From NCBI GenBank assembly GCA_050084515.1, contig CM114271.1, forward strand, positions 49,476,001 through 49,540,000: DNA of 64,000 nt. The letters run 5' to 3'. This document shows positions 8,572 to 62,666 of the stretch, piece by piece. Made by a program: the position numbers and the translations under genes. The notes beneath the pieces were generated by a model. The model was not told the DNA's origin and searched no databases. It saw nothing but the letters and a program-made list of their open reading frames with translations. Origin of the DNA: Blasia pusilla (lineage: Eukaryota). The first letter of the stretch is position 1. Each line of letters opens with the position of its first letter.

Positions 8572-8742
8572 GCCCCCCTAATTGGCGATTAGGTCCCTCT
8601 AACTCCCAGGTAGTCCTATACATCTACTACATGCTATACACCTTCTTGGGTGCCCGAATCAGAAGGCCGGGTGCTAGGTTGCCCCAACGTTAGTCGCACA
8701 TCTGTAATCCATATCATGCAAAGATCAAGTCATCTACCTCTC

Positions 8743-31625: not shown

Positions 31626-31955
31626 AGGGTCGGGCTCACATGCAGGCCGTGGGTATGTACCCGAGCTACCACTTGCTACAACGAGCGGCAACGGCGATGA
31701 AGAAGACCCATCTCTATAGTCAATTTCACAATGAACATTGTCGTGCGCATACATATCGCTACACAACATACATCGCTTGTCACATCTACACCACACAACA
31801 CCGATCTTCCCCACACACGGGTCGATCCACACATGTACAAAAATGAACTCATACATATACATGGAGATCACACAACCGCCCCCCTAGCTGGCAGTTGGAT
31901 CCTCCTAACTCCAGATAGAAAATATCACATCTCTTTGACATGACCTACTACCCTA

Positions 31956-32093
31956 TACACATCTCGGACACATCCATCGTCCCGTGGGAACCACATCAAG
32001 GGGGGGGGTCAGACATGACATATGCCACCCTCGAGAACAACCATCACATACCAACATGGTGGCTGCACCCCTTGCAGATCCGCACAACATACA
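31956..32093 (-). other. PHD finger (C4-H-C3) at the integrase C-terminus of E2
   Basis: CMLCGSARGAATMLVCDGCSRGWHMSCLTPPLDVVPTGRWMCPRC directly before the stop codon. Confidence 0.93.
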
Positions 32094-35000: not shown

Positions 35001-35334
35001 TTGAGACCTATCACAGGCTCCCAAGTCTCCATCGTGACCTCACTCGGAGAGGGGCGCAACCTCCGGCTTTGGTTGCTACGTAGCAACCCTAGCCACCTCC
35101 AATGACCACTCCACTCTGACCTCCTACACCATGCTCCACATCCGAAAAATGAACATGTGCTACTCTAGCCGCCTTCGCACTCTCTGCTCGAACGCGCCCG
35201 GGAAGTCCATGGGTGCCTATCTCTCCTCGTCTCGCCCTGACCAATGCAGACTGAGACCACTGTGAGGCGTGGTCCAACTCGTGGACGTGACGGTATGGAT
35301 GACACTCGCATCCGTCTATGCTCAGCCCTACCTA

Positions 35335-36270
35335 GGCTGACTATCCATGTGAGACAGTTGAGGTCCATCGCCTGCCCCAACACCTGTCTCCGTGATGCCT
35401 CAGTCATCCCTGGCACCGCCGTAGTACCGGTAGTGAACCCCATGGCGCGCTCGCGCTCATCTGCTGTAGGCTCCTCCAATACTCCGGTCACCTCATCCCA
35501 AATCATACCTGGCCATACCTGACGAAAGGCATGGGATGCTGGGAAGCTCACCAACGTAGGTAAGGCTGCCCTCAACTCCCCCATCCTATTGGCCGTGGCC
35601 AATGGTGGTCTATCATCGCATGTCACCACCTGAGATTGACGCCCTGAGTCCAAAATAGCATCCACCGTGAGATGTGGTGCTCTCTGGACTCCACTGTAGG
35701 CTCGACTCAGTACCTCTCATGGTATCAGGTTCGTCCACCATAGTCGTGGACGATGGGCACGTGACCCAACTCTCGCTGCATCTAACAACACAGCCGGTCC
35801 CAACCAAGACCTCACCTGATGTACACTCGTCATCACACGTGCACGAGTATCTCCCAACAACGGCACGTTCTCCAAAATGTACGCTGGAGAACATATCTGA
35901 CTCTGCTGCAAGTGTCGTACTACTCGCAGCATCTCCCAAAACATCCCGACCTCGGATCCTGCAATCCAAATCCTCGGCCAGCTGACATGGCCATCCAGCA
36001 ATCACCAAATGAATGGTGCCAACTCTATCCAGATCATGCGCCCCCACCAACGATATGTCGGCGGGTAGCGTATGCTGGTATCCCCGTACTGCAGATACCG
36101 ACAACAACTCAGAATACCTGTGGACCAATCTCGCCACATGACGTAATGATACTCGCCGCGCGGTCTCATCTCTCTCCACATAAAGGTATTGGTGCACCCG
36201 TATGCCCGCCTGCAATACTGCAGCCAATCCGGTGCTAATCCCTCCAAAGAGATCTAACACCCTAACACCC
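35335..36270 (-). pseudogene. DNMT3-like methyltransferase domain of E2
   Basis: VRVLDLFGGISTG, YVERD, LVIAGWPCQ, YILENVP, AHRPRLWWTNL, ERERAMGF, RRQVLGQAMD. Confidence 0.92.
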
Positions 36271-39200: not shown

Positions 39201-41170
39201 CCGAGAGTCTCCCACACGCCTCACTAGCTCACCTATGCGAACATCAATCCCGTGATGACACACCCGGCCTCACGCACGCTCAACACTCGGCCTTACCATG
39301 AGCCTCCCAACTGACTCACCTAACCTAGCGACACTCTCTCGGTTCATACACGCGACCCCTACTCGGCAACCGCCGTATATCCACCAACATGCTACACATG
39401 ACAAGAATCTACACTCGTCACCATCATTGCACCCATCTAGCACCAGCTAATACCCGATACCCAGCACTCTCAATCACACACGACAAGTGCGGGAAAAGGG
39501 ACTCGAATGGGTAACCTGATCACACCCTCCAACCAGCTGCACCGTCAATATGCACTCCTCCACATGATATGACAATCTCCGCCACATAACACTCCCCTCG
39601 ACCAACACGTCGATCCTCCCGTCAATAGATGCGGACAACCCGTCGGCATCATGCACACTGCCCCTCCAACGTAAACTCTCGCAACGCCCTATGCGCGCCT
39701 CAAAACAACATGTCACGCCTGCTGCCCAACTTGTCGATCACTCAGCACGTCGACATCCTCCCTGCCCTCACGTTGCCCATGCGCACCGCGTTCGCCGGAC
39801 CGACCTCGTCCGTCCTACCACGTTCGCTCGATTGTCGGCCGCCCGTCGGTGCTACCACGCCGGAAAGAGGGGGAAGAACTTGGGCCCGCGGCCCTATCGC
39901 CCCCTTGGGCCCTAAATGCGCGGGGGCGGCTCGCGCCCTGGGGCCCTAAATGCAAAGGGGAAGGCCCGCCCACGGCCCTATGCGGGCCTTAAGCGCAGGG
40001 GAGGGGGCGCTGTCGCGTGTTTTGCGGTCCGCCCAGCCGCTCCGCCACGCGCCCGCCACGCGCTTGCCGCCGTCCGCCCGCGCCCGCCCCGTCCACCGTC
40101 CGCGCCCTGCCGTCCGCCGTCCGCCGTCCGTGCCCTAACTCTAGCCGCCTTTACTTGACAGCCCCCCGGCGGCTGCAAGACCCAACTTGCCCATTCCTTC
40201 TCTTTCGACGCCTTCACTTGCGTACACCCGACGCCCCACCACACGCTACACTTTTGCTTTGTCCCCAACAATCTGCACCAGCAAAATCTGAGAAAAACGG
40301 ACAGCGCTTCCGCCCACGGCCTTCCAAACATGAAAATGACACAAAATGACACACACACATCTCCAGGGGCTCCCCAACCGAGGCAACTCGCTTGCCTACC
40401 TGCAAACAACAAATTCCCACCAGCCCCCTGACATCTTTCTCATGTAAAAATAAAGAGTAGCAAAAACGGCACACCCGGCCTAAAACTCCACTCCTCAATC
40501 TACATCGGCATATCGAGCCTCGTCCACCTTGTGCTATCAAGGAATCTGGACGCTAGCACCCTAGTCCTAGCTCACACACATACAAGGGAGGTGCTCCAAC
40601 GGCCCAACATGAGAAAGATGGCTTAGGAAAGCCATCTTCCTCTCTTATATAGGTTGGGAAGAGCCACAAGGCTCAAACCCCAAAAATAGCCCTTCCCTTG
40701 GTAACCTGCGCGCACAGGTTACCAGGGGCAGGTGACCTGGTCAACAAGTCACCCGGTTGTAAAAGACCTCAACATGAAAGTCGTCAAAAATGACGTTCCT
40801 GACACAATGGACCTATCCTCAACCTCATCCGACATTGTGGGACAAAGTTACACTCAAGATAGTCCGCTGGCTCCTACGCCCTATCCACGATAGATCTCGG
40901 CCTATCGGCTACTCATATGTGACAACATCGATTTGTCCCAGCCCCTAGCCATAGAGATGTATGGGGCTATGGGGAAGAGGTTTGAATCGTTCCTTACATA
41001 TTACACCCATCATCGATCTCCAATCGTGAACTGGGCTATCATTAGCTACTACGATTCTCTACTATAGACAACGAGTCTCTACATCTTTGCAATGTGCCCA
41101 AGCCGGTAGGATTTTGTGGAAGACGCCAACATTAGGGGCCCGCTTAGTCATAGTCATATCTCTCTAGCTA

Positions 41171-41278: not shown

Positions 41279-41323
41279 CCTTTTCTTTTCTTGGGCTGGT
41301 TGTGGCCTTCACATACTTTACTC

Positions 41324-43030: not shown

Positions 43031-43429
43031 TGGTGATTCTAATGGTTCTAGTGGGGACTTAAATGGGATTTTGTACGGGTAAGGTGCTTGACGGCTTGAG
43101 GGGTTGGAGTAGGGTTGTTGTGATAGAAAATAGGTTAGTTAGAAATAAGAGCAATTGAAGAAATGGGGATAATATTGGTGGAGAGAAGAAGGGGAATGTT
43201 AAAATATAATTGAGTAGGCTGGTTATATTGGAAAATAGGTTATTTGGAAATTAGAGTAGGTCAAAAAGGAATCTGATAGCATAACAAAATCAGATTTAAT
43301 TTCTAAATGATGACTAGTGGAGATGGTTTAGTAATAAATTGTAAGTAGGGATAGATGATTTTGGAAGTTAGAGAGGTTCATTCTCTTCCTTTCATCCTCC
43401 CACATATAAACTTGCTCATTTTTTGTGTA

Positions 43430-43809
43430 TGTCATGACCATACAGATTATGTCGTAGAATATAGTGTGCTAGTAGAGGCCATACCTTATGTAGGGCCGCA
43501 GTGTCTAGGTAGAGATGCGATTTCATACATAGGGTTGGGGTTACTCAATTGAGGGTGAGTTTTCCAGTAGGGCCCGCTCTTAGGTTGGAGGATATAAAGT
43601 GGAGTGCACTCAAAGAAGTGTCAGTTCTTTGAGTTGAGCCTGTTGCGTTGGGAGTTAGCCTTGGTAGTGAGTAGAGCTCTTGGCTATGGTGTTTCCCGCA
43701 AGCTTCGACCTAGATTCTCCCATCGTGGAGTGGGTTTGGCTTGATTGTATGTGATTCTATACGTGTTTTATGACAAAAGGTCTTTCCCGGATTTCACTCA
43801 AAGAACTGA
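43430..43809 (+). promoter_or_regulatory. E3 5' L segment: TATA (43593-43598), initiator-like TCAGTT (43621-43626), self-complementary PBS (43796-43809)
   Basis: TATAAA lies 30 nt upstream of the A in TCAGT. tcagttctttgagt (43621-43634) is the exact reverse complement of actcaaagaactga (43796-43809). Confidence 0.75.
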
Positions 43810-46800
43810 TGTAGATCGATGGTAGCTTCGGTTGTGGATCAGTAGGATCTGGTTAGGGCTAATTGTGTACTCAACTGTGGATATTCGTGGCTTGTGGCCT
43901 ATGTTGGAGGTGTGAATCTGGTGCGTGGTTGGTTGGGAAAGAAGCGCCTTGCTGAGAGCTTTCCAACGCGCTTTAGATCGCCGGATTTCGTCAAGGGAGT
44001 TGGAAGTTATCAAGGATTGAAGATTCTGGTTCGTGTTCGACGGTTTTCTGATGTGGAGAGCTTGGAGTGCGGAAGCTTTGTTGAAGTTCATCCAGATCGG
44101 GTGAGAGATTCTTGTTGCTACTTGTATTGTGATCTCATGTGAAGCTATCTGCTTGAGTGTGTGGAGCGTTGCGGATTTTTGCGTGCATGAAATTGGGCGG
44201 AAGCGCTGTCGGATTTGCGATTCTTGAGGTGTATGGACAGCAAGTTTGTCTGATTTTTAGCTCGGAGTACAGAGCTTGGTTGTAGCTAATTTTTTGTGGA
44301 GAGATAGCTATGGTGGTTAATTGAATTTTGGTTGAAACAGATTTGATTTTGGTCACGGATTTGTGAAGTAATTTTTTATCCAAATTTGGCTATGGTGGAC
44401 AGCGGATCGGAGGGGCTGGTTGGTTGGTGACTCGTTCATTGTTAGAGACGCCTATCCCATTGGGGACGCCCTGGTTGGGCCTCTCTCCATAGCAAAGCAT
44501 GGCAAACGGGGCGATAGGGGCATGTCTCGAGGCTTCGAGGCAACTCGTGGTAGCTCGGGGCGAGTGGGCGTGAGAGGCGGAGTAAGGAGCAAGGAGCAAG
44601 CAAGCAAGCTTGCTTGCTTGGGCGTGAGGCAGATTTTGCAGGATTTGTGATTTGAGTGTTGCATAACTGGTCACCCATCTTTGGGGTATTCTGCCTGGAG
44701 GACGCTTAACTACTGAGTTCTTAACTATGCCAGTGTACATACTGGTGTAGCTCATTTGGTGTTGTTCGGAGATGTGTTAGGCGCTTTATGCATCTCAAGT
44801 TTTTGGTTGATGTATCTCTAGCGCATAGTTAGGTGTAACCTTTTCATGCAGGTGATATTTTCAGGTGCTGCGAGTCCGACTAGCACGTCATCGACCCGCG
44901 GCGGAGTAGCTTTTGCGTTAGAATTGTGTGGTGGGTTTTGTAGATTCAAGGGGCGCCACGTTTGGTGGATTGTGTTACCTTGATTTCCATTTGCGATTGG
45001 AGGATTGTCGTTGGACTTCCTGTGTTTGGATCCCCTCCATCGTTGCTTCTTGCTTGCGCGCCCATTGTTAGGGTTGACGCTGATTTCCAGAGTAGTGTTA
45101 CTCCTGTGTGCTACCGGTAGTGAGGCTGGAGTGATGACCAATAGACCGTGGGAGGATTCTTGTGGTGATGACAGGTTAGGAGTGTTGCAGCTCCATTGAT
45201 TTGGGACATGGACGGGATATATGGGGCCATGAAGGGCCCACGACGATACTCGGGTGTAGTGGGCACCATTGAGTTGGAGGACTTCATGCAGGAGTTTGAT
45301 ACGTGGTGTGATATGCAGATGTTGCGGAACGCCACGTTGTTTACACCCTTCTTGGCTTGGAAGGGGTTGTTTTAGCACTTGGAGGGACCACCCATGGATG
45401 ATTACCATGAGTTTAGGAAGGACCACGTTGCTGAGATTGAGGCATGGAGACAATATTGGTCTCCAGGCTATGTGTCTATCACCCATGGTGGTATTGGTAG
45501 TAGTGCTCCTACTATGCCAGCCAGCCCGACGTTGAGTGGTACGAGTACGAGTCGGAGTGGGGGTATCAGTGGAGGTACCAGTGGAGGTACTAGTGGAGGT
45601 ACTAGTGCCCCACCATCGTTTAGCCCGGTTGCCGAGTTCTTCAAGAGGTTGAAGAAGAACTATCAGGGAGTGAAGACAGAGAAGTTGAGGAGTCTTCAAG
45701 AATTTGAGCGAAAGACTGGTGAGAGTCTTCGTGAGGCATACACTCGTATCCGACGCTTGATTTGATTACCCAGTGTGGACCGAGGCTCACGCATGATCGA
45801 TTTTGGTATGGGATCTTGGGCAGAGAGTTGCGCGCAGGTACGTGATGCTACTCTTATGAGTGATGATTCACCCACATTGACCCATGTGTTTGCTCTATTT
45901 GAGAAGATTGAGCTTAACATGGTGAAGGAGAGAGTGGTGACATCCGCATTCAAGAGGGGATACAACTACTACTTCGTGTTCAAAGCAGCCCACATCACAG
46001 TCTCGTAGTAGTGGTGGTGGTAGTAGTAGTGGGAGTCGTGGGGGTACACACGACCTCGATCAGTCCTAGAGGGACACTTGCGCAGAGACCATTGCCTTCA
46101 TTTGCTGCCCCCCAGCAAGGGGATCATGTTGGACATGTGGAGGTGATCATGTTAGGAAGTTTTGTCCCCAAGAGGATGGAAGACGGACTTTGGAGGATGG
46201 GCCTCGATCGGCCCCAACTCGGTGTGATCATTGCGGGAGACCAGGTCATCCTCGAGCGTTGCTTTGATCTTCATCCAAAGTTGAGATCAGGCCGCGGCCG
46301 TGGTGGAGTAGCTCCGAGAGGCCGAGGTGGTAGGGGTGGTAGAGGTGGATCAGTGGTTGGAGAGCCTACGTTGGCCATCCCTACCACTACGACAAGTCAA
46401 CTATGGTGTCGAGGATTGAGCGATTGGAGAGGTTGGCTACTATGGTGATATCTAGCATAGATCAGGTTCGGGAGCAGGGCTTCCACCTCTTATGGAGGGA
46501 TGATCTCTCTTATATGGCGAGTGCAAAAAGACAAGGTTGAGGCATCAAGCTGCGATACGAGAGGAGCCACTCGAGCGTCAGAGCCACGTGGTGCTACTGT
46601 GGAGTTGGACCCATAGAGAGGTGAGGCTGGGAGGCAGGCTAGGCTTCCCGAGTCATTCTTATTGTCTGAGGTGCTTAGGACTCCATCCATGGTTCCTACG
46701 CAGCCTATTGAGCCGACATTGGGGACTGAGGCATCTACATCGCGTCTAGTAGACACGGATCGACTTCAGTGCAAAGATGTGCGGATGGCAACTTCAGTGT

Positions 46801-47849
46801 TGGGATCCCCATTGTTTTCGGCCACGGAGTTGATGGCTTTAGGAGTTGACTTAGCTCATGTATTTCAGCTAGCAGCCAGGTTGTGTGAACATGGGGGTGT
46901 TAGTGCTACACGTGCTGAGGTGGATGAGGGTGTTGCAGTGGAGCGACCCTCTATGTCAAGTGTAGCATTGAGTACCAGTGCTACTTGGCAGGTAGCAGCG
47001 GCAAAGATGGATGCATTACCAACCCGGCCAGCCATTGATCGTGAGAGGCTTACACCTGGTGTATGTATGTTGGACAACCGGAGTGGAATATTCCGATTGG
47101 TGAGTCCTACAGGAAAGGTGTATAGACCAGATAGAGTCTTGTTAGACTCTGGTGCCCAACCTTTGACGTTGGGAAAGGCGTCATGTATTGGTTTGGGTAT
47201 TCGAAGGTCAGAGCTTGAGCCTTGCCCATTCCAGATTCAAACATCATTTGGAGGAGCCAATGATAGGTCTCAATTCATGACACGGGAGAAGTTTTCTGTA
47301 CAGTTGAGACCAGATCATGCGACTCATAGCTCCCGGTTGGGAGTACCTGCAGTGGTCACATCAGCCGAGTCGTATGATGTACTAGTTGGAGGAGCAGTAT
47401 TGTACCCGATGGGTTTTCAGATGGATTACTAAACTGAGACAGCGTCTTATAGACCTGGTTGGCAGTCTGGGGATGGACGTATGAGCCAAGTTCCTGTGAG
47501 ATTTATTTATGGGGCTCGACCAGGAGGGTCTTTCCCAACGGTATTAGCATCTGTGGCTGGTTTTAGTGGAGTAGTCACTTGGCCATGAGACTTTTGGGAG
47601 GGTAATGTTTCCGCTATGGATTCTCCTGTGCATGAGGAGGTAGAGGAGGTCCCTATTTTTGCAGCAATGGCATCCTCATCGTTGGATGTGCCACTTTGGA
47701 GTTCAGGAGGTGCACTACGGCAGGAGGCTTGGTGTGAGGCTGTTATACCTCACGAGGAAGAGGACGCCCCATGGCGGACTCCTACTTCTGGTCCAGTTGG
47801 GTTATCCCCTTTGGATACTACACCCATTGTATGGCAGTATGCGTCGGAG

Positions 47850-48790
47850 GGCATTTGTGTGTTAGATCTCTTTGGTGGGATTAGCAGTGGTTTGGCTGCA
47901 ATGTTGCAGACCAGTATTCTTGTGCGGAGATACGTGTATGTGGAGCGGGATGAGACGGCCCAGAGAGTCTCATCCCGACATATTGGTCAGTTGATGCGGA
48001 GATATCCTGAGTTGTTGCCGCCATCAGCTATTCGTGGGTACCGACGTGCTTTGTCCTCACACATTGCATTGTTGGGGGCGCAGGACCTTGAGAAGGTTGG
48101 TCCTGTGGATTTGGTGATTGCTGGATGGCCATGTCAGGGTCATACACGTGCTGGTCGTGGTGAGGGATTACATGACCCTAGGTCTCGATTGTTTTGGGAG
48201 ATGTTACGGGTGTTACGACATCTTCAGGTTCATCAGGCACGTGCTCCAGCTTACATTCTGGAGAATGTTCCATTGTTGGATGACACTCGGACCCGGATGA
48301 TGGCGAGTGTTCATGAGGTGCGGTCTTGGATTGGACCAGCGGTGTTATTGGATGCAGCGCGAGTTGGCTCGCGTGCACATTGTCCACGCTTGTGGTGGAC
48401 AAACTTGTTGCCTAAGGAGGTTCTACGTCGAGTGCAGCGGGATCCTTGCCTTACAATGGATAGTATCTTGGATACTAGGCGACTTTCTCAAGTGGTGAGG
48501 GTTATTGATCGGTCACCCATGGCAGTGGTGAACCGTGTGGGCCAGCCTAGGATGGCACTACCCACATTTGTGAGTTTTCCCTCGTCACATGCATACAGGG
48601 AAGGTGGTCCGGGCTTGTATGGGATTCTCATGTGCGAAAATTGGTGGAGCCTAACGCTGATGAGAGAGAGCGTGCGATGGGATTTGCTACTAGTGTGACA
48701 GCAGTTGCTTCCATTTCTGAGGCTTCACGACGTCATGTGTTGGGTCAGGCCATGGACCTGAATTGTTTGACTTGGATTTTGAGTCTTGGT
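47850..48790 (+). pseudogene. DNMT3-like C5 cytosine methyltransferase domain of E3 (best-preserved copy)
   Basis: ICVLDLFGGISSG (I), YVERD (II), DLVIAGWPCQG (IV, catalytic Cys), GLHDPRSRLFWE, YILENVP (VI), DAARVGSRAHCPRLWWTNL (VIII), ERERAMGF (IX), SEASRRHVLGQAMD (X). One frameshift near 48620. Confidence 0.95.
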
Positions 48791-51656
48791 ATGGCCGAGC
48801 AGCGTCGACTTCGGACTATGTGTGTGGGTCTTCCACCCCTTGTAATGAGCTTGATGGCTACCGGGACGATAGAGGCATCGGCTGGGGGCGAGGAGAGTAG
48901 TATTTTGCATCCTTAGAGTAAATGGGATGTAATGGCTGGGCATGTGGAGTTGGTTGCTCATGCTGGTGGAGGAGTTATTTGCTCAGATGATGGTGTAGCT
49001 AAGGGTGTACCATTTTGTGAGGGGGTTGCGTAGCAGCCAATGGCATCGTCCTCTCCCTCTAGTGTGCCAGTGAAGGAGACTTGGGAGCCATTTCTTGGGC
49101 CCAAGCTTACGGGAGGTGAGAAACGACGCTTGACACAGTTCCTACGTGCTTATAGGAGTTGTTTTGCCTTTAGCATGAAGGAGTTGGGTTCTCTGGTTGG
49201 ACCTAGTATACGGATTGATTTGGCTAGTCATACGCCAATCTTCCGTCGTCCCTACCGATATAGCGATATGGAGAGGGACCTGATTCAGAGTAGGACGTTG
49301 GACCTTTTGGAGGCTGGATTAGTGGAGTTATCGCATGGAGAGTATGCATCAGCCACTGTCATGCCTGCTAAAAAGGATATGCATGGCAACTACACGGATA
49401 GGCGGATGTGTGGAGATTACCATCCTATCAATCGGCAAACCAAGGCCGATAGGTATGCCATGCCTACATCTGAGGAGATCTTTGATGTGGTGGAACATGC
49501 AAAGATTTTCAGTACTTTGGATCTTCGGGCATGATACCATCAATTGCCGATTCGGGAGAATGACAAGGCCAAGACAGCATTTTGGGGTGTCAACTCTCAT
49601 GGCAAGGATTTTTTGTACCAGTGGAAATTCTTACCCTTTGGGTTGAAGAATGCACTTGCCGAGTTTCAGAGAGTGATGGACAGGATCCTAGCAGGATTGG
49701 ATTTTGTTTGGTGTTACATTGATGATATCTTGGTGTTGATAACACGGTGGAGGAGCATCGAGATACATTTGCAGATGGTGTTTGAGCGGTTGAAAGCTCA
49801 TGGTCTATGTTTGCATCCAGGAAAGTGTAAGTTCTTCCATGAGGATGTTGAGTACTTGGGTCATGTGATCTATCCAAGTGGTTTGGGAGTTCAGAAAGCA
49901 AAGGTGGAGACTATTGCACTTATTCCGCGTCCGGTAGATGTGAGTAGAGTTCGAGCATTCATGGGATTGGCGAACTACTATCAGAGGTATGTGAAGGGAT
50001 TTAGTGCTATGGCAAAGCCTTTGAACCAATTGCTGAAATCAGATCAAGAGTGGTATTGGGGAGATGATCAGGAGAGAGCTTTTGTGGAGCTTAAGGCCAA
50101 GTTGGTGGCGGCGCCTATCTTGAGGAGACCTATCAGAGGGCGCCCATTTCAGTTACACACTAATTGGAGTAGGTTGGGACTTGGAGCGGTGTTGACACAA
50201 CATGATGATGAGCACATGGAGTTTGTGGTGGCCTATCCAAGTCGTTCGAATAATGCAGGATAGTCGCGCTATAGTTCATATGAGGGAGAGTGCTTGGCAG
50301 TAGTGTGGGATGTGGCACACTTTAGGTGTTACTTGTTTGGCACACAGTTTACCCTTGTTACTAATCACCAGCCGCTCAAGTGGTTGATGGAGTCTGACAA
50401 GCTTACAGGGAAGCTTGCACGGTGGGCTCTTATCTTACAGAAGTATGACTTCCATGTGGTACATAGACCTGGAGTTGCCAACCTTGATGTTGATGGGTTG
50501 AGTAGGAACCCATGTACTAGCCAAGAGGATACAACTGGGGCTAGATGGCATGGCGAGGTTGATGAGGAGATGGTGCCAGGTTGGCATGCATCCGCCTTTT
50601 TATGTTGGTTAGGGATGGACTCTAGTATGGAGGACCACATGATATCTTACTCTAGTCAGAGGGTAGATGGCCAGCCTTCAGATCCTAAGGTTGGAGATGG
50701 TGGTACGGATCAGCGTGATATTCATGATGATGCGTTGGTATTGGAGTTCCTACGGACCAGTAGGGTGCCAGGCATAGTGAGTGCCAAGGAGCGAGACCGT
50801 ATTCTTCAACGTGCTAAGAGGTATCGATTGGAGGGAACACATATTCTCTGTGTGTGGGAGGATGGTAGAGTATGAGTAGTGCCGCATTTGGCTCAGAGAG
50901 AGCGCATTGTGCGACATGCCCATGAGGAGTTGGGACATTTTGGGGTAAAGCGTACGTATAGCTTACTCCTTGGTCAGTATTGGTGGCGTGGCATGCATAC
51001 TCAAGTGCAGCAGTTGGTGTCATGTTGTATGGTTTGTGACCGGGTGAGGGCATCATTCAATGCCCCTACACCACAGTTACACCCCTTGCCTATTATGGGG
51101 TTGGGTTACCGTTGGAGTGTGGACTTTGCGGGACCGTTACCGTTGACTGTACGACATGATCGATATGTTTTGGTGATGGTGGATCACTTCTCCAAGTGGA
51201 TTGAGTTGGTGGCATTACCTGACAAGGCAAGTGAGGGAACGGCGTATGCGTTTCTTGACAGAGTGCTTAGTCATTTTGGTGCACGGTGAAGTCTTGACCG
51301 ACCAATGTCTGAGTTTTGGTGAGTTTTGGTCTTGTGTGACAAGGCGTTGATTGATCATCGGACCACATCTCGAGATCATCCGAGGCGGATGGTTTGGCTG
51401 AGCGTGTGGTTCGGGAGCGGTGAAGAGGGCATTGCGCAAGTATGGCCTCTGAAGGGCATCTTGAGACCAGGATATTCAGTTGCCATGGTTAGCCATGGGG
51501 TATAGGTTCAGTCGCCAAGTATCCTTGGCTTCCTTCTCACCTTATTTTTTGTTATACTGCCGAGATCCAAACTTGCCAGCAACAATTCATTGGGAGTCTA
51601 GTGAGGTGGTGAATCTTGATGACCCAGAGATGTGGATGAGAGTGTGTTCTCAGCGG

Positions 51657-52932
51657 TGTCGTATAGTAAAATCAACTAGTGTGTAAACTCCTTCGTCATT
51701 AAGTGTTAGATAGAGTTTCATTAGTATTAAGTAAATTGGCTTAGAAAAAGGAGATTCTTATGTTTAAACCTCTTTATGGTGCCTCTTTTATGCGGGCCCA
51801 ACTTTAGGAAAAGGAGGTAATAAATAAAATATGACTTTATAAAAGTAAAGTAGTTGCTTTAATGAAAAGCAAAAGTAGTCTTGGTTGGTGGCTAGGTTAG
51901 TTGGGGTAATTTGGAAAATATCATGTGGGTAAAAGAGGATATTTTGGAAGAGATAAGAGGAAATCTACTTGTGTCAAAATGTGATTGGCTAAGCCTTGAG
52001 AGGAAGCCATGTGGCACAAGATAAGATAAGCTTTATTTCGTACTCTTGTGGATCCCTTGTGAGTATATAAAGAGGAGGGACCTTCAAGGGTTCATCACTT
52101 TCTATTCCACATCTTGAGTCTCTCGTGTCTCTCTTGAGTGTATGGCTTTGGGATTGCTTGCTTTTCCAATGAGAGTGGATCACCCCTCTTGGGAGAGTAA
52201 CTTGATCATGGTCTATTCTTCGAGAGGTTTCTAGAGTGTGGTGTATGTGTGTGGGGGGGATGAGAGGTTTGTCACCGTAGAGGAGTTTAGTCATACTAAA
52301 ATAGCGGATGTTTTGGCTTGTTACTTTCCCAATGAGAGTGGATTACCCCTCTTGGGAGAATAATTCCGCCAAAACCCATTCTTGAGGAGAGTAGAGAATG
52401 TCTGTCAAGCATGGATAGGGGTGGAGCACGAGCTATGCCCGACTTTCCTTTCCTCAATCCTTACCATGTCAAGGTACTCTTTGTAGATAGGCACTGGTTC
52501 ACTCGCTATTTAGTTTATCACTTTGGGGAGGCGTTCATGAACCAGGTCATGCAATCTCCAACTCCGGTGATTCTTCCTATCGTCACATATGGAAGGACAT
52601 GGGATTGTACTTTGTATGTCCTTATATAGCAATCCATGGATGTCAATAGGTCTGGTCAAGTAGGGTTTAACACTAGTTGTGCTATCTTCCTCGTGTACAA
52701 ACGTAAAATAGTTTATAGGGATTTTATAGTTAGGAATTTCGGGGTCCGATGTTACGAAGAAGTGATCGCCTCGGCACTTCCATTTGTGATACCTGTCGTG
52801 AGAGAATGGAGAGTGTACATCATAATTTTGTATTGAAAAAGGAGAACTTATTAGAGAGTTCACCTTGCATCGACCGCATCTACCGCAGCTAGAAGGCCCA
52901 CCCTTGCTCGAAGAAAGATTCTCGACGCGACA
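51657..52932 (+). mobile_element. 1276-bp solo-LTR-like insertion of a different family inside the E3 integrase
   Basis: TGTC...GACA ends. It interrupts the codons CSQR|AEL, leaving gcgg/acgg (4-bp TSD, 1 mismatch). TATATAAA at ~52064. Internal repeat ccaatgagagtggat.acccctcttgggaga at ~52166 and ~52329. No recognisable coding content. Confidence 0.85.
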
Positions 52933-53290
52933 ACGGGCAGAGCTCTTTCGGAGAGTTATGCCAACAGCCTTTGAGAATCTTGCCATTGCTCAACACAGGG
53001 ATACGTTGCGGTATGCAACCATTCGGGGTGGAGGTTATCGACCATCGATTCGTAGGTTCCATGTGGGGGACTATGTCTATTTGCAGCAGATTTCACCGAC
53101 AACGTTGGATGTGACGGCATGTCGCACTATTTTACAAGTGCGCGAGGTGTTAGCTTCTGGAGTTCTCATGTTGGAGGGTCGTGATGGAGTTGTTTGGAAG
53201 GACTATGTGCGTAATTATGCGCCATGTCATCCTCCAAATGTGGATGGTACTGTTGACCCAAGCTTAGCCATGATACGTGCTAGCTTGAGG

Positions 53291-53428
53291 TGCATGTTGT
53301 GTGGGTCTGCTGGTAACGCAGCCCATATGTTGGTGTGTGATCGGTGTTCTAGGGGTTGGCACATGATGTGTTTGACTCCACGTATGGATGTTGTTCCTAT
53401 TGGAAGGTGGGTTTGTCCCCGATGTACT
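53291..53428 (+). other. PHD finger at the integrase C-terminus of E3
   Basis: CMLCGSAGNAAHMLVCDRCSRGWHMMCLTPRMDVVPIGRWVCPRC. Confidence 0.93.
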
Positions 53429-53603
53429 TAGGAGAGGTAGATGACTTGATCTTTGCATGATATGGATTACAGATGTGCGACTAACGATGGGGCAACCTAG
53501 CACCTGGCCTTTCTGATTCGTGCACCCAAGAAGGTGTATAGCATATAGTAGATGTATAGGGCTACCTAGGAGTTAGAGGGACCTAACCGCCAGTTAGGGG
53601 GGC

Positions 53604-54160
53604 GAGTTGTGGAACACTTGTGTTTGTGGATGCTCTCGTCTATGTTATGTATGTATGTGAGTATGGTATGTCAGCGATGTATGTTGTATGACGATGTGGA
53701 TTTGCACGACAGCTGTCATGACCATACGGATTATGTCGTAGAGTATAGTGTGCTAGTAGAGGCCATACCTTATGTAGGGCCGCAGTCTCTAGGTAGAGAT
53801 GCGATTTCATACATAGGGTTGGGGTTACTCACTTGAGGGTGAGTTTTCTAGTAGGGCCCGCTCTTAGGTTGGAGGATATAAGGTGGAGTGCACTCAAAGA
53901 AGAGTCAGTTCTTTGAGTTGAGCCTATTGCGTTGGGAGTTAGCCTTGGTAGTGAGTAGAGCTCTTGGCTATGGTGTTTCCCGCAAGCTTCGACCTAGATT
54001 CTCCCATCGTGGAGTGGGTTTGGCTCGATTGTATATGATTCTATACGTGTTTTATGACAGTAGGTCTTTCACGGATTTTAGTTGTGGTACACTTGTGTTT
54101 GTGGATGCTCTCGTCTATGTTATGTATGTATGTTGTATGACGATGTGGATTCGCACGACA
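53604..54160 (+). repeat. E3 3' terminal block S1-gc-L2-S2
   Basis: S1 53604-53711, junction cacgaca-gc-tgtcatg, L2 53714-54078 matches L1, S2 54079-54160 carries a short internal deletion between tgtatgt repeats. Confidence 0.95.
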
Positions 54161-54369
54161 TGTACCCTCACAATCGCATTCCTCCCTTCATGTCTCTCTT
54201 TCTATAAATTCTTTTGTGGATGTTTTTGTCTCCATAGATACTTGAACTTGATAAGTGAGAATATATTTTGCCACTAGATAACCCTGATAATTTAAGGTAT
54301 TTTGGTTATCTAGGTTAGCATATTGATCTTTCTTGTTCATAGTGAGTGTTTCAACTTTGTCATTGGAGC

Positions 54370-55133: not shown

Positions 55134-55989
55134 TGTCACGACTGTTAGGATAGATCGGTGGGATCTAGCAGAACGTCTGCACGAGTAGTGGAGGACATGC
55201 CCAAGAGGTCAAGGATGACCTGTTGAGGCCCCAGGAAACCATTTCGGCTCATTTGGAGCCATATAGAGAAACTTGCTATTTCAGGTAAGTTTCCATGTTA
55301 GAGATAGTTGACTTTCTACTTTGGGAAGTGGCCCTTGATCCGCTATAGTAGGTCAAGAGCCAAGGAGGTGACCTGCGAGAATAGGTTACCGTTGAGAGGG
55401 CTTGGGAGAGGGAAGGGGATATACCTCAAGGAGAGAGAGCTTGAGAGCTCATTCTCTCTTTGTTGAACCTCTTGGCATAAGGCGGCGGAGCTATGGTCCC
55501 TTGCCTTGTGAGTGTAACCCAAGCCTCTCATTAGGAGAGTGGGTTTGATTTGACATGAGAGAGAGTGCACACCTTTGAGAGCTATGGTGTGAGATGGTGT
55601 AGAGAGAGATTGGATCTAACTTTACAAAGAGAGAATGAGATAATGAGAGAGCTTCATGGGGGAACTCGTTGGTCACTCGTTGTTTTTGTAGGTTGGGGAC
55701 CGTGTTCCCCATTCAGCTGCTCATGGGAGTGCTCACCAGAGCAAGGGCTGCTTTGATTGTTCTTTGCATTTGCCGATTTTTCCGTGTGTAAGAGTAGCGC
55801 GGAAGCGCTCCCCAATTTCTCATAGGGATTGATTATGGGGATAGGTTGCCCCATGCCGGTGCTCTCTGGAGCACCATGAAGCTTGCTGATTTGTATTTTT
55901 ATAGGTTTTACATTTTCATTGGGAGAAACCAGCGCGGAAGCGCTGCCAAATTTTGTGTAGGAGAAAGAGACATTGGGCTTTACGATCGC

Positions 55990-58900
55990 CTAGCAATGGC
56001 AGTTTTGCTTGGTTGCCCAGATGGAGGTCGCCACAGTTATGACGCATGGAGCAGCCACAGAGTTGGATCCAGAGTGAGGGGAAGCCAGAAAACATACTAG
56101 GCTTCCTCAATCTTTCACGTTGTCGAAGCGACGAGGACCCCATCGATGGGTCCTCATCAAAGTCCCTGGAGAGTTGGTGATGTTGTTGGTGTGCAGGCAC
56201 GGAGGGCAATGGGAGAAGTGAGTGTAACGACTCCTATTGTTGATGCTCAAGAGGGGCATGTGTCGAGCACCTTATTGGGGGCGGCCACCGTTGTGTACCA
56301 CACTCCTTTATTTTCTGCTTTCCGATGTTATGACGTTGGGGGGTACGCCCGCCGAGGCTTTTCGGCTGGCCGCTTCACTATGTGAGCGCGGAGTTGGAGT
56401 TCCTGCATCACGTTCAGAGGTGATTGCAGAGGAGGTGATGGACTTGCCCTTGGAGCGGATGCTTGGGCCGTCCACGTCAGATTCATGGCAAGCTATGGTA
56501 GCTAGGATGGCGGAGATGCCTGCTAGACCCGCGATAGAGCGTGCCATGGCTTCTCCTGGTGTTGTGTTGCTCGATAAGCAAGGAGAGGTCTTCCAGTTGG
56601 TGAGTCCCTTAGATAGAGCTTTTAGTCCGCAACACGTCTTTTTGGATTCAGGAGCGCAACCCCTGATGTTGGGGAAAGCGTCATTCAGAGGATTGGGCTT
56701 GACGAGAGCCGATGTGGAGCGTTTTCCATTCCGGATATAGACATCCTTGGGTGGAGCGAGTACCACATAATATATCACCCAACATGAGGTCGTGATGAGG
56801 ATTCGCTTGGGACATCCTATAGATGAGTCCGTGATGCGAGCCAAGGCGATAGTGACTGATGCAGAGTCCTACAACGTCTTGGTTGGTGGAGCAGTGTTAT
56901 ATCCGATGGGGTTTTCCCTGGATTACGGGGAGGAGTCAGCATCCTACAGACCAGGATGGCACTCAGGTGATGGGCGCCTTAGCTCATTACCCGTTCGATT
57001 CACAGGTGCAGTGATCGAGCGACGAGTAGGAGAGGTGGCGACCTTATCAGCATTTAGCAGTGCCATCACTTGGCCTAGTAATTTGATTGAGGGACATGTC
57101 CATGCAGAGGATACTCCTGTTCCTGACATTTCTATGGAGAGGAGTGTTATGGTAGTCGCATCATTCCATGGAAGAGAGATGTCATTGTGGGGCTCGATTG
57201 AGGAGCTTCGACGATTGGCAGATGAGCACGTGCAAACCACGTGGAGCGAGGCGTTTGCACCGGAGCATGATGGGTCTGAGGAACCCGAGGTAGCAGGGAG
57301 TGCTACGATAACACCCTTGGATACCACACCCACTGTGTGGTGTATCGCGGAGGAGGGTATTCGAGTGTTAGATCTCTTTGGAGGGATTAGCACTGGGTTA
57401 GCTATTGTTTTGCAGGCAGGAGTGCTAGTGCAGCTGTACCTGTATGTGGAGAGTGATGATGTTGCGAGGCGCGTCTCACTATGACATGTGGTGCAGTTAC
57501 GCCTATGTTTTCCCAACTTATTGTGTGCGTCCGCGATACAGGGGTACCAGAGTTCCCTACTGAGGGATATTTCGTTTTTGGGGGCGCAGGACTTAGAGCG
57601 GGTAGGGACCATTGATTTGGTCATTTCCGGTTGGCCATGTGAGGGTCAATCGAGTGTTGGACAAGGCAGCGGGTTGGCTGACACTCGGTCCAGGTTTATT
57701 TGGGAGATGTTGAGGGTCTCACGGCAGTTACAAGAGCACCAATCTCGTTCTCCAGCCTACATTCTGGAGAATGTGCCGATCTTAGGAGACTCCATGTCAT
57801 GGATGGTGACAAGTCTTCATTAGGTGCGTGCCTAGATCGGCCTAGCAGTGTTCTTGGATGCATCAAGTGTAGGTTCTAGAGCCCATCACCCACGTCTATG
57901 ATGGACCATTTTGGTGCCCCATGCGGTGTTACGGAGGGCGTATGCGAGAGTGGAGCGCCCATCCCATTTGTTAGTGGATTCCATTGTGGATCCAGGTTGT
58001 CAATCACAGGCAGTGAGGCACGATGATCGACCACCGTTGACTGTGGTCAACAGGGTAGGCAGGCCGCAGGCAGCCTTGCCCATATTTGTGAGTTTTCTTG
58101 CTTCCTATGCATACAAGGAGGCCGGTCTTGGCTTGGTTTGGGATGACTAGGTTCAGCGGTTGGTGGAGCCCAACGCCGACAAGAGAGAGCGAGCGATGGG
58201 ATTTCCCACAGGAGTGATGGCAGTATCGTCAGTGTTAGAGGCATCACAACGACATGTCTTGGGTCAGGCGATGGGACGTGAATTGCTTGACATGGATCCT
58301 CATCTTGGGAGTGGATGAGCAGCGTCGTATGACATCGCGTCAGATCATAGCGGTTGCGTTGGTGAGCCCCATGCCTACCAAGACGGTGGAGCCAGTGGCT
58401 GGGGGCGAGACCCGAGGAGATCTACACACTATGGGAGATTGGGAGAGACATCCTTGGACTTCTTGGGATGTTTTGCAGGTACGCCAAGAGATGATAGCCA
58501 CAGCATCGAGTGTGGTTCCGGGCACTGCATATAGAGGACATCAGAGTTTGCAGTTGGCTGCAAGAGAGCGGCCGAGTGTAGTTGTTCGAGACGAGGTTGC
58601 ACCATAGCAACCATCGATACCCGCGCCGGAGAGTCCTACCGTAGTCACAATGGAGACTTGGGAGCCAGATATGGGCCCTAAGTTGACAGGAGGAGAGCCG
58701 CGCCGGATACATCAATTCCTCATGAGTTAAAGGAGTTGCTTTGCATTTAGCATGGAGGATGTGGGTACGCTGAAGGGACCGGGGATCCGCATTGAGTTGT
58801 CGAGTGATACGCCGATCTTTCGACGACCCTACAGGTACAGTGATTTGGAGAGCGCTCTGATTCAGAGTAGGAGCCAGGACTTGGTCAGAGCAGGACTAGT

Positions 58901-61701
58901 GGAGATGTCGCATGGGGAGTATGCATCTACTACTTTCATGCCCGCCAAGAAGGATGTGCATGTCAACTGGACGGATAGGATGTGGGGATTACCAACCTAT
59001 CAATCGGCAGACGAAGTCCAATAGGTATGCCATGCCCACCCCTGAGGAGATCTTTGATGCAATTGGTCACGCAAAGGTCTTCAGTTCATTGGATTTGCGA
59101 GCCGGATACCATCAGACTGCCTATAAGAATAGAGGACAGGCTAAAGCCCGCATTTTGGGGCATCGATCCTTCGGAAGGATTGTTTGCACCAGTGGCGGTT
59201 CTTACCATTTGGATTCAAGAACGCTCGGCTGAGTTTCAAAGGGTGATGGATAGGATCTAGGCTCGTGTGGATTTTGCTAGGTGTTATATTGATGACATCG
59301 TAGTCTTTAGCACCAAGGTTGAGGAGCATGAGCGACATCTAGAGGAGGTATTTCGACAATTGCAATTGCATGGGCTAAAGCTACATCCAGGCAAGTGCAA
59401 GTTCTTCTACGACCAGATTGATTACTTGGATCATACGATATACCTAGGGGGCCTTGGTGTTCAGCAGACGAAGGTAGAGGCTATCTCACGCATTCCACGC
59501 CCTATAGATGTGAGCCGTATTCGCGCATTAATGGGATTGGCAACTTCTATCGGCGGTACGTCAAGGGATTCAGTTCGATTGCAAAGCCGCTAACCTTGCT
59601 GACCAAGGTGGATCATGAGTGGCACTGGAGGGATGAGCAGGAGCAAGCATTTCACTTGCTCAAGGACAGGTTGACGTCCGCGCCCATCTTGAGGAGACCG
59701 ATCAGGGGGCGTCCTTTCCAGTTGCACACAGATTGGAGCATGTTGGGGCTTGGAGAGGTGCTCACCCAGCATGATGATGAGGGTAGAGAGTTCGTGGTGG
59801 CTTATGCTAGCCGCTCAAACAACACTAGAGAGGCGAAGTACAATTCGTATGAGGGTGAGTGCTTGGCCACAGTGTGGGTTTCACGCATTTCAGGTGTTAC
59901 TTATTCGACAACCCCTTTACCATCATCATTGATCATCAACCACTGAAGTGGTTGATGGAGTCCGACAAGCTTACAAGGAAGCTTGCGAGATAGGCTCTGT
60001 TGTTGCAGGAGTATGATTTTTAGGTGGTACATAGACTTGGGATGCTCAATGAGGATGCGGATGGGTTGAGTCGTAACCCATACCCGAGTCAGCAAGATGC
60101 GTCTAGAGCTCAATGGCATGGAGAGAGTGATGAGGAGTCAGTGCCAGGATGGCACGCATCAGCCTATTTAGGCATGTTGGCTATGGAGAGCCAGAGTGTG
60201 GACACTTTGATGGCGAGGTCTAGTAGAGAGTGCTTGGATCGCGAGGCCAGTGAGCAAATGACAGGTGGCCAAGATATTCATGATGATGGAGTAGTCTTGG
60301 AGTACCTTCGTACTGGCAGCGTTGCAAGCACCGTGGGTGCTAGAGAGCGGGATCGGATCCTACATCGGGCCAGACGGTTCCGTTGGGAGGAGACACATAT
60401 TTTGAGGGTTTGTGAGGATGGTAGAGTACGCGTAGTGCCACATCCTTCATAGAGAGCACAACTAGTGCAGCATGCCCACAAGGAGTTGGGTCACTTTGGG
60501 GTGAACTGGACGTATGGCTTGCTCCAGATTCAGTATTGGTGGCGAGGCATGCAGACTGACGTTCAGCAGTTTGTTGCCAGGTGCATGGTGTATGATTGGG
60601 TCCAAGCATCATTCAATTATCCGACTCCACAGTTGCATCCATTACCGATCATGGGCTTAGGGTATAGATGAAGTTTGGATTTTGCAGGACCTTTGCCTTT
60701 GACGTAGCGTCACAGTCGTTATGTGTTGGTGATGGTCAAGCACTTCTCGAAGTGGATCGAGTTGGTTGCATTGCCTGAAAAAGCAAGTGAGGGAGTAGCT
60801 TATGCCTTCCTTGATAGAGTGCTAAGTCATTATGGCGCACCAGTTGAGGTGTTGATAGACCAGGGTACCAAGTTTCGCCCTGTGTGATCAGGCGCTGATT
60901 GACCACCGCACGACTTCGCGAGATCATCCCGAGCCGGATGGATTAGCGGAGAGAGTTGTGCAGACGGTGAAGAGGGGTTTATGCAAGTATGGCTTGCAGA
61001 GAGGTCACCTAGGAGATTGGGACCTCCAGTTGCCGTGGTTGGCGATGGGATACAGATTCACCAGATAGGCATCCTTAGCGTCTTTTTCACCGTACTTGCT
61101 ACTTTATGGTCGAGAGCCAGATTTACTTATGGCCATTCGTCGAAATATTGGTGAGGTGTTGGATCTTGATGACCCAAATATATGGATTCCAGCAGGTTCT
61201 TAGAGGGCTGAGTTTTTTTGGAGAGTGATGCCCATTGCGTTTAAGAACTTGGCGATTGCGCAGCATCGAGATATGTTGAGGTATGCGACTATTCGGGGTG
61301 GTGGTTATCGACCAACTATTTGGAGGTTTCATTAGGGAGATTATTTCTACTTGCAGTAGACTGCACCGACGACCTTGGATGTGAATGCAGGGCGCACTAT
61401 CTTGAGAGTGCGTGACGTTTTGCCATCCGATGTTCTCTTGCTGGAGAGATGCGAAGGTATGGTATGGAAAGACCATGTGCATAATTGTACGCCATGTCAC
61501 CTTCCTAACATTGATGGTACAATAGATCCAAGCTCAGCAATAGTTCTTGCAGGCTTGCGTTGTATGTTGTGTGGTTCTGCTCATGGTGCGGCCACGATGC
61601 TAGTCTGTGATGGATGTTCGAGAGGTTGACATATGGCATGTCTGACGCCACCTCTCACTAGGGTTCCTCAGAGACGATGGATGTGTCCAAGATGTACATA
61701 G
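55990..61701 (+). pseudogene. E4 pol polyprotein (PR-DNMT-RT-RH-IN-PHD) with many premature stops
   Basis: 56237- (FLDSGAQP), 56792- (IRVLDLFGG), 57488- (ISGWPCEG; YILENVP) and 57911- are all in one frame. RT 58752-59593 (YIDD), RNase H 59596-, integrase 60465-61500, PHD 61561-61698. Confidence 0.93.
57355..58305 (+). pseudogene. DNMT3-like methyltransferase domain of E4
   Basis: IRVLDLFGGISTG, YVESD, DLVISGWPCEG, YILENVP, AHHPRL*WT, ERERAMGF, RHVLGQAM. Confidence 0.9.
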
Positions 61702-61890
61702 AGGAGATACTAGGTAGGTTTCGATTTCGACTTTTTCTGTGACATCGATGGTAGGAAGAAGACTAAGGATGGGGCCACATGAGCACCTGACCTTTCTGCT
61801 CTTAGCGTCCTAGAGATGTATGTCGCGCTAGGTAGGGATAGATGGCTATCTGGAGTTAGACGGACCTAACCACCAGCTAGGGGGGGGGGC

Positions 61891-62662
61891 GATTGGAGAT
61901 ATTTTGGTATTTCTCGCCTTTGTGTATGGATGCCATGAGTTAGCATGGAATCGTCTGTGTTTTTGTGTGTGTTCGATGACAGCAATGTATGTTGTGTAGC
62001 GATGTGTATGCGTACGACAATTGTCACGACTGTTAGGATGGATCGGTGGGATCTAGCTGAGCGTCTGCATGAGTAGCGGAGGACACGCCTAGGAGGTCAA
62101 GGATGACCTGTTGAGGCCCTGAGAAACCTGAGAGAGCAGGTTTCCCCTTCGTTTCGGCTCATTTGGAGCCATATAGAGAAATTTTCAATTTCATGTAAGT
62201 TTATATATTAGGAATAGTTGACTTTCCACTTTGGGAAGTGACCCTTGACCCGCTACAGCAGGTCAAGAGCCAAGGATGTGACCAACGAGCATAGGTTACG
62301 GTTGAGAGGGCTTGGGAGAGGGAAGGGGATATACCTCAAGGAGAGAGAGCTTGAGAGCTCATTCTCTCTTTGTTGAACCTCTTGGCATAAGGCGGCGGAG
62401 CTATGGTCCCTTGCCTTGTGAGTGTAACCCAAGTCTATCATTAGGAGAGTGGGTTTGGTTTGACATGAGAGAGAGTGCACACCTTTGAGAGCTATGGTGT
62501 GAGATGGTGTAGAAAGATATTGGATCTTTCTTTAATTGGAGATATTTTGGTACTTCTTGCCTCTGTGTATGGATGCCATGAGTTAGCATGGAATTGTGTG
62601 TGTTTGTCTGTGTGTTTGATCACAGCAATGTATGTTGTGTAGTGATGTGTATGCGCACGACA
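61891..62662 (+). repeat. E4 3' terminal block S1-at-L2-S2
   Basis: The 129-bp S occurs at 61891-62019 and 62534-62662. Junction tacgaca-at-tgtcacg. L2 matches 55134-55623. Confidence 0.95.
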
Positions 62663-62666
62663 CCAG

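Follow-up and report, generated by a model that had tools for sequence, protein, structure and literature searches.

A 64,000-nucleotide (nt) stretch of the Blasia pusilla genome (NCBI GenBank assembly GCA_050084515.1, contig CM114271.1, positions 49,476,001 to 49,540,000 of the forward strand; this whole stretch is called the window here) is a nest of related retrotransposons, as seen by self-BLAST and a protein map, and the repeat block at 53596-54160 is the 3' end of one of them, the element E3. In E3 and its relatives, the ends that reverse transcription should set and the ends that a DDE integrase appears to use are uncoupled, being circular permutations of each other. We propose, with moderate confidence, that the integrase of these elements uses internal GACA-NN-TGTC sites in the long terminal repeat (LTR) and that the complementary DNA (cDNA) passes through a head-to-tail joined (U5/U3) intermediate.

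The terminal repeat of E3 is split into two halves, L and S, with NN denoting the 2 nt between S and L, and the element reads L1-PBS-internal (about 9.8 kb)-PPT-S1-NN-L2-S2 on the + strand from 43430 to 54160 (PBS, primer-binding site; PPT, polypurine tract; Table 1). An earlier note, made from the letters of the window, had given the order L-PBS-internal-PPT-S-NN-L-S for E1, E3 and E4, and re-mapping of all three confirmed it; the split layout is thus carried by three window elements from two families. E1 is a 92-94% relative of E3 with an identical part order, and E4, whose pol is only about 75% identical to that of the E3/E1 family, follows the order of E3. Sensitive self-BLAST found no terminal repeats in E2, which prompted its recognition as an L-internal-S (L-int-S) form. 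The 5' end consists of L alone in all four window elements. Within each of the three split elements, identity between S1 and S2 tracks that between L1 and L2 (95-97% versus 96.4% in E3, 96.6% versus 94.8% in E1 and 91.4% versus 88.7% in E4); the S2 of E3 has, in addition, lost 27 nt internally between short direct repeats.

The outer TG and CA ends of these elements belong to different halves, TG to the start of L and CA to the end of S, and they are flanked by 4-bp target-site duplications (TSDs), both as the earlier note had described. The TSDs are perfect in E3 (TGTA), E4 (CCAG) and E2 (ATGT/ATGT), whereas that of E1 (ATAT/ATGT) matches at three of four positions and its first TG has mutated to TT. 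Junctions were taken from reads and contigs of DNA and RNA runs aligned to the window (15 of 96 joints listed). Among the joints listed, 43426 was joined to 54163 by one contig per DNA run in two runs, and one of these contigs has a lone A at the junction. This empty-site join, from an allelic or paralogous site, omits E3 together with one TSD copy and so fixes the outer borders of the element. E4 is nested in another gypsy copy, and its host flanks align to its own paralogous stretch at 58637-58706 and 58703-58762; because these alignments overlap by exactly 4 nt (58703-58706), with the paralogue standing in for an empty site, the borders of E4 are fixed as well.

We compared these insertion ends with the borders of reverse transcription. 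In E1 to E4 the bases after L are not tRNA-like and are instead complementary to a site inside L, over 14 nt in E3 (L position 192), 13 nt in E1, 15 nt in E4 (L position 315) and 14 nt in E2 (L position 305); none of 2,000 shuffles reached the observed pairing length in any of the four copies. The three families have three different PBS and self-primer sequences, which amounts to covariation. In E3 the L half holds a TATA box (L position 164) upstream of the self-primer site TCAGTTCTTTGAGT, which begins at L position 192 (43621-43634), and in both E3 and E2 the self-primer site lies 28-31 nt downstream of the TATA box. Of 14 metagenome relatives (introduced below), 7 keep 10-12 nt of E3-type pairing, which has decayed in the rest. 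The PBS named in the earlier note does border L, but these features indicate a probable Tf1-like self-primer site, with the predicted transcript start placed by the TATA box at about L position 192 (43621 in L1, 53905 in L2). L ends 0-1 nt before the 13-15-nt self-complementary PBS, and the start of S follows, at a distance of 2 nt, the G-run of a PPT conserved across families.

Transcripts support the same borders. Raw reads of two stranded RNA-seq runs with the same species label gave a sense depth of 63-96 in the bin 53672-54045, versus 1.2-1.3 in the bin 54046-54400, which covers the final 33 nt of L2 together with the whole of S2. From this collapse at 54046, transcripts appear to run PPT-S1-NN-L2 and to end inside L2, as at an ordinary R/U5 border. 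Since the L/S joint and S2 are essentially untranscribed, both must be remade in each cycle, with which the parallel S1/S2 and L1/L2 identities of each element agree. The PPT, the self-primer and the RNA borders together suggest that reverse transcription should yield, at both cDNA ends, the S-NN-L repeat that lies between PPT and PBS, a point on which the earlier note was supported.

Some further features of the transcribed region were observed. L contains a hairpin at 53891-53918, and at the matching place in L1, in which the PBS-region sequence is repeated exactly over its first 11 nt, CACTCAAAGAA; this copy sits 5 nt upstream of the E3 self-primer site, the hairpin that it forms with that site spans the predicted transcript start, and E4 and E2 have comparable hairpins. 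Among the joints listed, RNA reads skip 7746 nt from 45293 to 53040 (6-7 reads) and 2280 nt from 50678 to 52959 (16-31 reads, with 9 other letters between the two sides). Neither joint has GT..AG ends, and both probably reflect transcripts of internally deleted copies rather than splicing.

The coding region of E3 runs from a gag-like part through a protease-like part, a C5 DNA methylase, reverse transcriptase (RT) with RNase H, and an integrase zinc finger with an rve core to a PHD finger, and Pfam matches fell in the order DNA_methylase, RVT_1, RT_RNaseH/RT_RNaseH_2, Integrase_H2C2, rve and PHD. In one better-preserved relative (L068), a single open frame of 374 amino acids (aa) holds a full rve core (48.1 bits; cut-off 32.6) and a PHD finger, and the residues D27, D87 and E122, read by eye in the 374-aa rve and PHD frame P0111, have the D,D35,E spacing. 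A tyrosine recombinase (PF00589, Phage_integrase) was sought in 27 open reading frames (10 + 10 from E3 and 7 from L068, covering both strands) and gave no match, so that a DDE integrase without a tyrosine recombinase, as first read in the window, still stands. The pol order of protease, RT, RNase H and integrase, with a gypsy-type RT_RNaseH, and the short TSDs (4-5 bp) are those of Ty3/gypsy elements, whereas complete and equal LTRs at both ends are replaced by L only at the 5' end and S-NN-L-S at the 3' end. As judged from sequence, these are Ty3/gypsy retrotransposons whose integrase has the D,D35,E spacing and which also encode a C5 DNA methyltransferase and, at the C-terminus, a PHD finger. 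The methylase has its closest named relatives in Sphagnum, Marchantia, Calypogeia and Riccia (58-78% identity), and the lineage is therefore widespread in bryophytes. Separately, E3 carries a copy-specific insert of 1283 nt (51652-52934; 41% GC) between the integrase core and the PHD finger, with an internal 54-nt direct repeat and no match to any Pfam family. E1 lacks it, as do most of the copies in the genome and in the RNA (joints 51653 to 52934 in RNA and DNA runs, among the joints listed), and RNA depth is high inside it, suggesting that the insert is itself a transcribed repeat.

Split direct repeats are typical of tyrosine-recombinase retroelements; TOC1-type elements share them with PAT and Ngaro, and to our knowledge none of these makes a TSD. 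The repeat order in PAT and Ngaro, A1-internal-B1-A2-B2 (PMC4157794, in the text excerpted), is the order found here, and repeats of this kind are termed DIRS-like in the excerpted text of de Mendoza 2018 (PMC5890265). Replication of that type would rebuild a circle from RNA carrying the A2/B2 joint and insert it by recombination rather than by a DDE integrase. We regard this as very improbable for the elements of the window, given that the RNA depth falls before S2 and leaves the joint out of the RNA, that 4-bp TSDs and TG..CA ends are present, that a conserved integrase frame retains its full D,D35,E triad, and that the scanned frames gave no Phage_integrase match.

The TG and CA ends used for insertion lie inside the repeat made by reverse transcription, as the earlier note had stated, and they meet at an internal palindrome, GACA-NN-TGTC, in which NN is GC in E3, GT in E1, AT in E4, and GC or AC in the metagenome relatives. 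Every insertion runs from the start of L to the end of S (or to an inverted start of L) with a 4-bp TSD. In the mechanism that we propose, reverse transcription would make an LTR of the form S-NN-L, with U3 corresponding to S-NN plus the first half of L and R-U5 to the second half of L. The integrase would then recognise ends of the types TGTCRTG... and ...CAYGACA, away from the cDNA termini, both motifs lying back to back in the 10-bp palindrome inside U3. Integration would always proceed from an L (TG) to an S (CA) with a 4-bp staggered cut of the target, and the outer pieces of the cDNA would be discarded. We infer these three steps from anatomy that is directly shown.

The same anatomy recurs outside the window. 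Searching metagenome contigs with the E3 integrase C-terminus gave 80 loci from a related organism (70-88% aa identity), in which S and both L halves were mapped; the assemblies are short-read, and loci with a common flank were merged into sites. Resolved 3' ends came to 39 sites. The 3' end was PPT-S/flank only, that is, of the L-int-S type, at 26 sites (32 loci; for example, L005, L010, L011 and L038), the full S-NN-L/S-flank at 8 sites (16 loci) and a hairpin at 2 sites (3 loci). S-NN-L ended at the contig end at 3 sites (4 loci), S was truncated or at the contig end at 4 sites (6 loci), and 19 loci were on contigs without S. The 5' end was L alone in all 16 loci that reach it (13 sites), with no S upstream of the 5' L in any of them. 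Eight L-int-S relatives have both ends visible, and their TSDs are perfect in four, match at three of four positions in two and fail in one, with no findable L start in the last; the one full relative with both ends has a perfect TSD. A tabulation of terminal architectures and TSDs, of the kind called for by the earlier note but made on these relatives, recovered the full form at 8 sites and perfect TSDs in five of nine cases. Across 685 kb of relative loci, further S/L palindromes were limited to chance matches with one mismatch.

These relatives also bear on whether the layout could be artefactual, the product of misassembly or of end rearrangement in ordinary LTR elements once inserted. Merging of S1 with S2 during short-read assembly might in principle produce L-int-S. 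However, sites assembled from several samples always keep one form (four full sites seen 3, 4, 2 and 2 times, a fifth full site, L043/L059, seen twice, and seven S-only sites seen twice each), and L-int-S copies are as degenerate as full ones (means of about 1.1 versus about 0.9 stops per 100 aa; range 0-1.7), so that their repeats would not have collapsed and assembly collapse is unlikely. The layout recurs in three window elements of two families and at eight metagenome sites, and empty sites fix the outer borders. The ordinary LTRs at both ends of most copies that the earlier note had set against its own reading did not appear, S-NN-L standing at the 5' end in none of the 16 loci and none of the four window elements. 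We give next to no credence to an artefact or a secondary rearrangement.

The joint between L2 and S2 bears on how the full form arises. It reads GGATTT-T-AGTTG in E3, GGATTT-G-AGTTG in E1 and CTTTA/ATTGG in E4, and at seven of the eight metagenome sites it reads ..ATTTTC/A(G/A)TTG, the base before the PBS in L1 being fused to the base 2 nt past the G-run of the PPT; the remaining site has an extra G, and one metagenome joint is C/T polymorphic between samples. The fusion of U5 end to U3 start that was first described in the window, with the joints as given there, is thus precise or one base off in 11 independent elements, a precision equal to that of a canonical 2-LTR junction. A copy of the form L-int-S-NN-L/S cannot come from a cDNA of the form S-NN-L-int-S-NN-L without U5-U3 joining, and we therefore infer that a joined intermediate, and with it a head-to-tail joint, is required. 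In the proposed mechanism, this form would be the only re-replicable copy, and the joined molecule, carrying a joint of the 2-LTR-circle type, would be nicked at the palindrome of the PBS-proximal LTR. The joint itself could be made by host ligation of a closed circle or by an RT jump from the U5 end onto the U3 start. L-int-S copies would result where both palindromes of an unjoined linear cDNA, or the single palindrome of a 1-LTR circle, are used, and a later S × S deletion would yield the same structure; they may be direct products or later deletions, our age proxy being too weak to decide.

The hairpin ends are informative about the strand that is cut. At the two independent hairpin sites the layout is PPT-S-NN-L-CACTCAAAGAAC-TATG-, after which roughly the first 170-195 nt of L appear in reverse complement, and the sequence ends ..GGTCATGACA/flank, which is an inverted start of L. 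These copies look like plus strands that ended in a PBS copy, folded back on the self-primer site, were extended and were then cut at the next integrase site. The structure thus records a plus strand carrying a PBS copy together with the PBS-to-L complementarity, and its end at a TGTCATG-type site indicates that the integrase uses whatever site of this type comes next downstream.

The hairpins also lend themselves to a linear route without a closed circle, in which the plus strand switches template from the U5 end onto the U3 start, taken from the left end of the same molecule or from a second cDNA, and copies S. Nicks at the leftmost TG and, on the right, at a downstream CA would yield L-int-S where the first CA is used and the full form where the CA lies in the extension. 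Internal sites are common to this route and to the joined intermediate that we favour; only the making of the joint differs, and no circle closed by non-homologous end joining (NHEJ) is needed. In favour of this route, the products are asymmetric, with the left end always L (16 of 16 loci and all four window elements) and the right end variable (26 S-only, 8 full and 2 hairpin sites), the hairpins represent a plus-strand 3' end extended past U5-PBS and cut at the next CA site, and joints that are precise or one base off suit a template jump as well as a blunt ligation. Together with the absence of an alternative permutation (below), a left end that never varies, a right end that does and the hairpins fit a directional route in which a template switch gives a nicked, non-covalent circle or a short extension. 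However, the full-form joints, unlike the hairpins, contain no PBS letters, so that the switch would have to follow primer removal; a concatemer or an intermediate is not among the observed products; and the asymmetry may reflect faster decay of the alternative form. We consider the linear route unlikely, although less so than any other alternative to joined cDNA weighed here.

Several observations weigh against a head-to-tail joined cDNA that is cut at internal sites. The putative linear cDNA ends and circle are read back from integrated copies, and no extrachromosomal DNA, such as a covalently closed 2-LTR circle made by host end joining, was seen. Random opening of a closed circle should yield the alternative permutation, L/S-NN-L-int-S, as often as the full form, and this product, which the earlier note had predicted, was found in none of the nine L-int-S-type elements with a visible 5' end (eight relatives and E2); by a rough binomial estimate, the probability of such a result would be about 1 in 100 were the alternative as common as the 11 full copies. 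The alternative permutation may decay faster by L × L deletion, its long L repeats lying only ~115 nt apart. The metagenome copies, which come from short-read assemblies and belong to another organism, are without exception old (0-1.7 stops per 100 aa). L-int-S outnumbers the full form by 26 to 8 sites in the relatives and may represent secondary deletions, in which case these copies would say nothing about integration. Of eight read begin or end places listed, the single one in L2, a read-start pile at 53874, is ~30 nt too far upstream for the predicted start and may reflect the edge of an alignment; as it mismatches that start and falls at the margin of L's conserved part, it was not used as a transcript start. 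The circular-cDNA route of the earlier note is therefore supported in one part, the head-to-tail U5/U3 joint needed for the full form, whereas the counts speak against another, the simple random opening of a circle (alternative product 0 of 9; L-int-S at 26 of 39 sites). We put forward only tentatively the stronger proposal that the integrase never uses the cDNA termini, that productive transposition passes via head-to-tail joined cDNA with the circle-junction route as the normal life cycle, and that L-int-S copies are direct dead-end products of unjoined cDNA.

LTR retrotransposons and retroviruses are generally described as integrating both ends of a linear cDNA, with the ends set by the PBS and the PPT, and for retroviruses the 2-LTR circle junction counts as a side path or dead end. 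An older circle-junction model was reportedly proposed for spleen necrosis virus. The integrases of prototype foamy virus (PFV) and HIV-1 cleave the palindromic 2-LTR junction, according to the excerpted text of two reports (Delelis 2005, PMC1180852; Delelis 2007, PMC1905944). As there, cutting of a CA..TG palindrome by a retroviral-type integrase would here give two processed ends at once. The palindrome of those viruses is made by ligating LTR ends and serves a side route, whereas here it is built into every LTR and the L/S joint is not the putative cut site. CA and TG are only 2 bases apart here, in contrast to the 4 bases between them in retroviral 2-LTR junctions.

The earlier note knew of no described gypsy lineage of this kind; the layout is, however, present in the legend to Fig. 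4c of de Mendoza 2018 (PMC5890265), where KnitGypsy-Dnmt3 of Klebsormidium nitens has DIRS-like A-coding-B-A-B repeats with gypsy domains. The methylase inside pol and the A-coding-B-A-B repeats would place our elements with this Gypsy-DNMT3 kind, a likeness of domains and repeats, although the host differs and the nearest methylase relatives are bryophyte here. In the excerpted text, the account of KnitGypsy-Dnmt3 comes without TSD, PBS/PPT borders, self-priming or a mechanism. The Tf1/sushi group and the plant Tcn1 chromoviruses have a PBS complementary to the start of the element's own R rather than to a tRNA (Neumann 2019, PMC6317226, in its excerpted text). Our elements appear to resemble them in the PBS, whose 13-15 nt of self-complementarity lie at the predicted transcript start, and differ in having split LTRs rather than ordinary ones and a PHD finger rather than a chromodomain at the integrase C-terminus. 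For split repeats on a DDE-integrase element, no mechanism, TSDs, reverse-transcription borders, self-priming or product classes were found in the literature searched, in which subscription journals were thinly covered. The family was already known, and the uncoupling of RT-defined from integrase-defined ends is not described in that literature. If our reading is true, these elements would be a natural system with joined or circular cDNA as the productive substrate and a natural case of internal-site cleavage by a retroviral-type integrase, and they would explain how tyrosine-recombinase and DDE-integrase retroelements both came by the same split-repeat layout. LTR finders that seek two equal TG..CA LTRs will miss or misannotate such elements in the genomes of bryophytes and streptophyte algae.

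Table 1. Coordinates of retrotransposon features in the window and of hairpin loci in metagenome contigs
Feature	Position	Strand	Basis or detail
E3 left TSD, TGTA	43426..43429	+	sequence; empty-site contigs
E3 L1, 365 nt, start TGTCATGACC	43430..43794	+	self-comparison
E3 PBS ACTCAAAGAACTGA, one C between L1 and PBS	43796..43809	+	14 nt complementary to L positions 192-205
E3 coding region, frameshifted	45376..53428	+	Pfam, tblastn map
E3 C5 DNA methylase, PF00145	47589-48695	+	Pfam, E = 5.9e-10; between protease and RT
E3 RT and RNase H	49034-50872	+	Pfam, tblastn
E3 integrase zinc finger and rve core	50876-51286 and beyond	+	Pfam, tblastn
E3 PHD finger, C-terminal	about 53291-53425	+	Pfam
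E3 PPT, TAGGGGGGC(G), tract TAGGGGGGCG ending 53603	53595..53603	+	conserved in E1, E2, E4 and metagenome relatives
E3 S1, 108 nt, end GCACGACA	53604..53711	+	self-comparison
E3 palindrome GACA-GC-TGTC at S/L border, NN = 53712-53713	53707..53718	.	putative integrase recognition site
E3 L2	53714..54078	+	self-comparison
E3 S2, end GCACGACA, abuts last base of L2 +/-1 nt	54079..54160	+	self-comparison
E3 right TSD, TGTA	54161..54164	+	sequence; empty-site contigs
E1, family of E3	7987..17866	-	S2 7987-8094, L2 8095-8461, NN (GT) 8462-8463, S1 8464-8571, PPT 8573-8580, L1 17503-17866
E4, second family	55134..62662	+	L1 55134-55624, S1 61892-62019, NN (AT), L2 62022-62534, S2 62535-62662
E4 PBS CAAAGAGAGAATGAG	55625-55639	+	complementary to site in E4 L
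E4 TSD, CCAG/CCAG	55130-55133 and 62663-62666	+	sequence; perfect
E2, third family, L-int-S form, no NN-L2-S2	31739..40924	-	L 40447-40924, PPT 31879-31886, S 31739-31876
E2 PBS ACATGAGAAAGATG	40432-40445	-	complementary to site in E2 L
Hairpin locus	L001:1283-1798		3' end only in contig
Hairpin loci, one site	L016:3361-3878; L017:1412-1929		3' ends only in contigs

Remnants of related elements lie elsewhere in the window. E1 is inserted in an older, rearranged E4-like L/S region (7445-7986 and 17867-18663), which contains 110-nt tandem copies of an L segment and a 220-nt direct repeat flanking E1 on both sides and which ends in an L/S joint one base shorter than that of E4. A copy of the E2 family at 41326-41819 (+) consists of L, a PBS-like CATGAGTAAGATC and the last ~100 nt of S, its interior being almost wholly deleted. 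Neither this L-S-like remnant nor another at ~18094-18663 gave a clean solo unit. The 5' leader of E2 (39900-40200, - strand) contains a GC-rich block of GGACGG-type short repeats that the other families are without. A tandem array with a period of ~178 nt occupies 22795-23813 and adjoins an AT-rich segment at 24001-26000 (GC 0.295). GC skew reaches absolute values of 0.15-0.28 in 8001-18000, 32001-42000 and 42001-64000, with G exceeding C on the coding strand of all elements.

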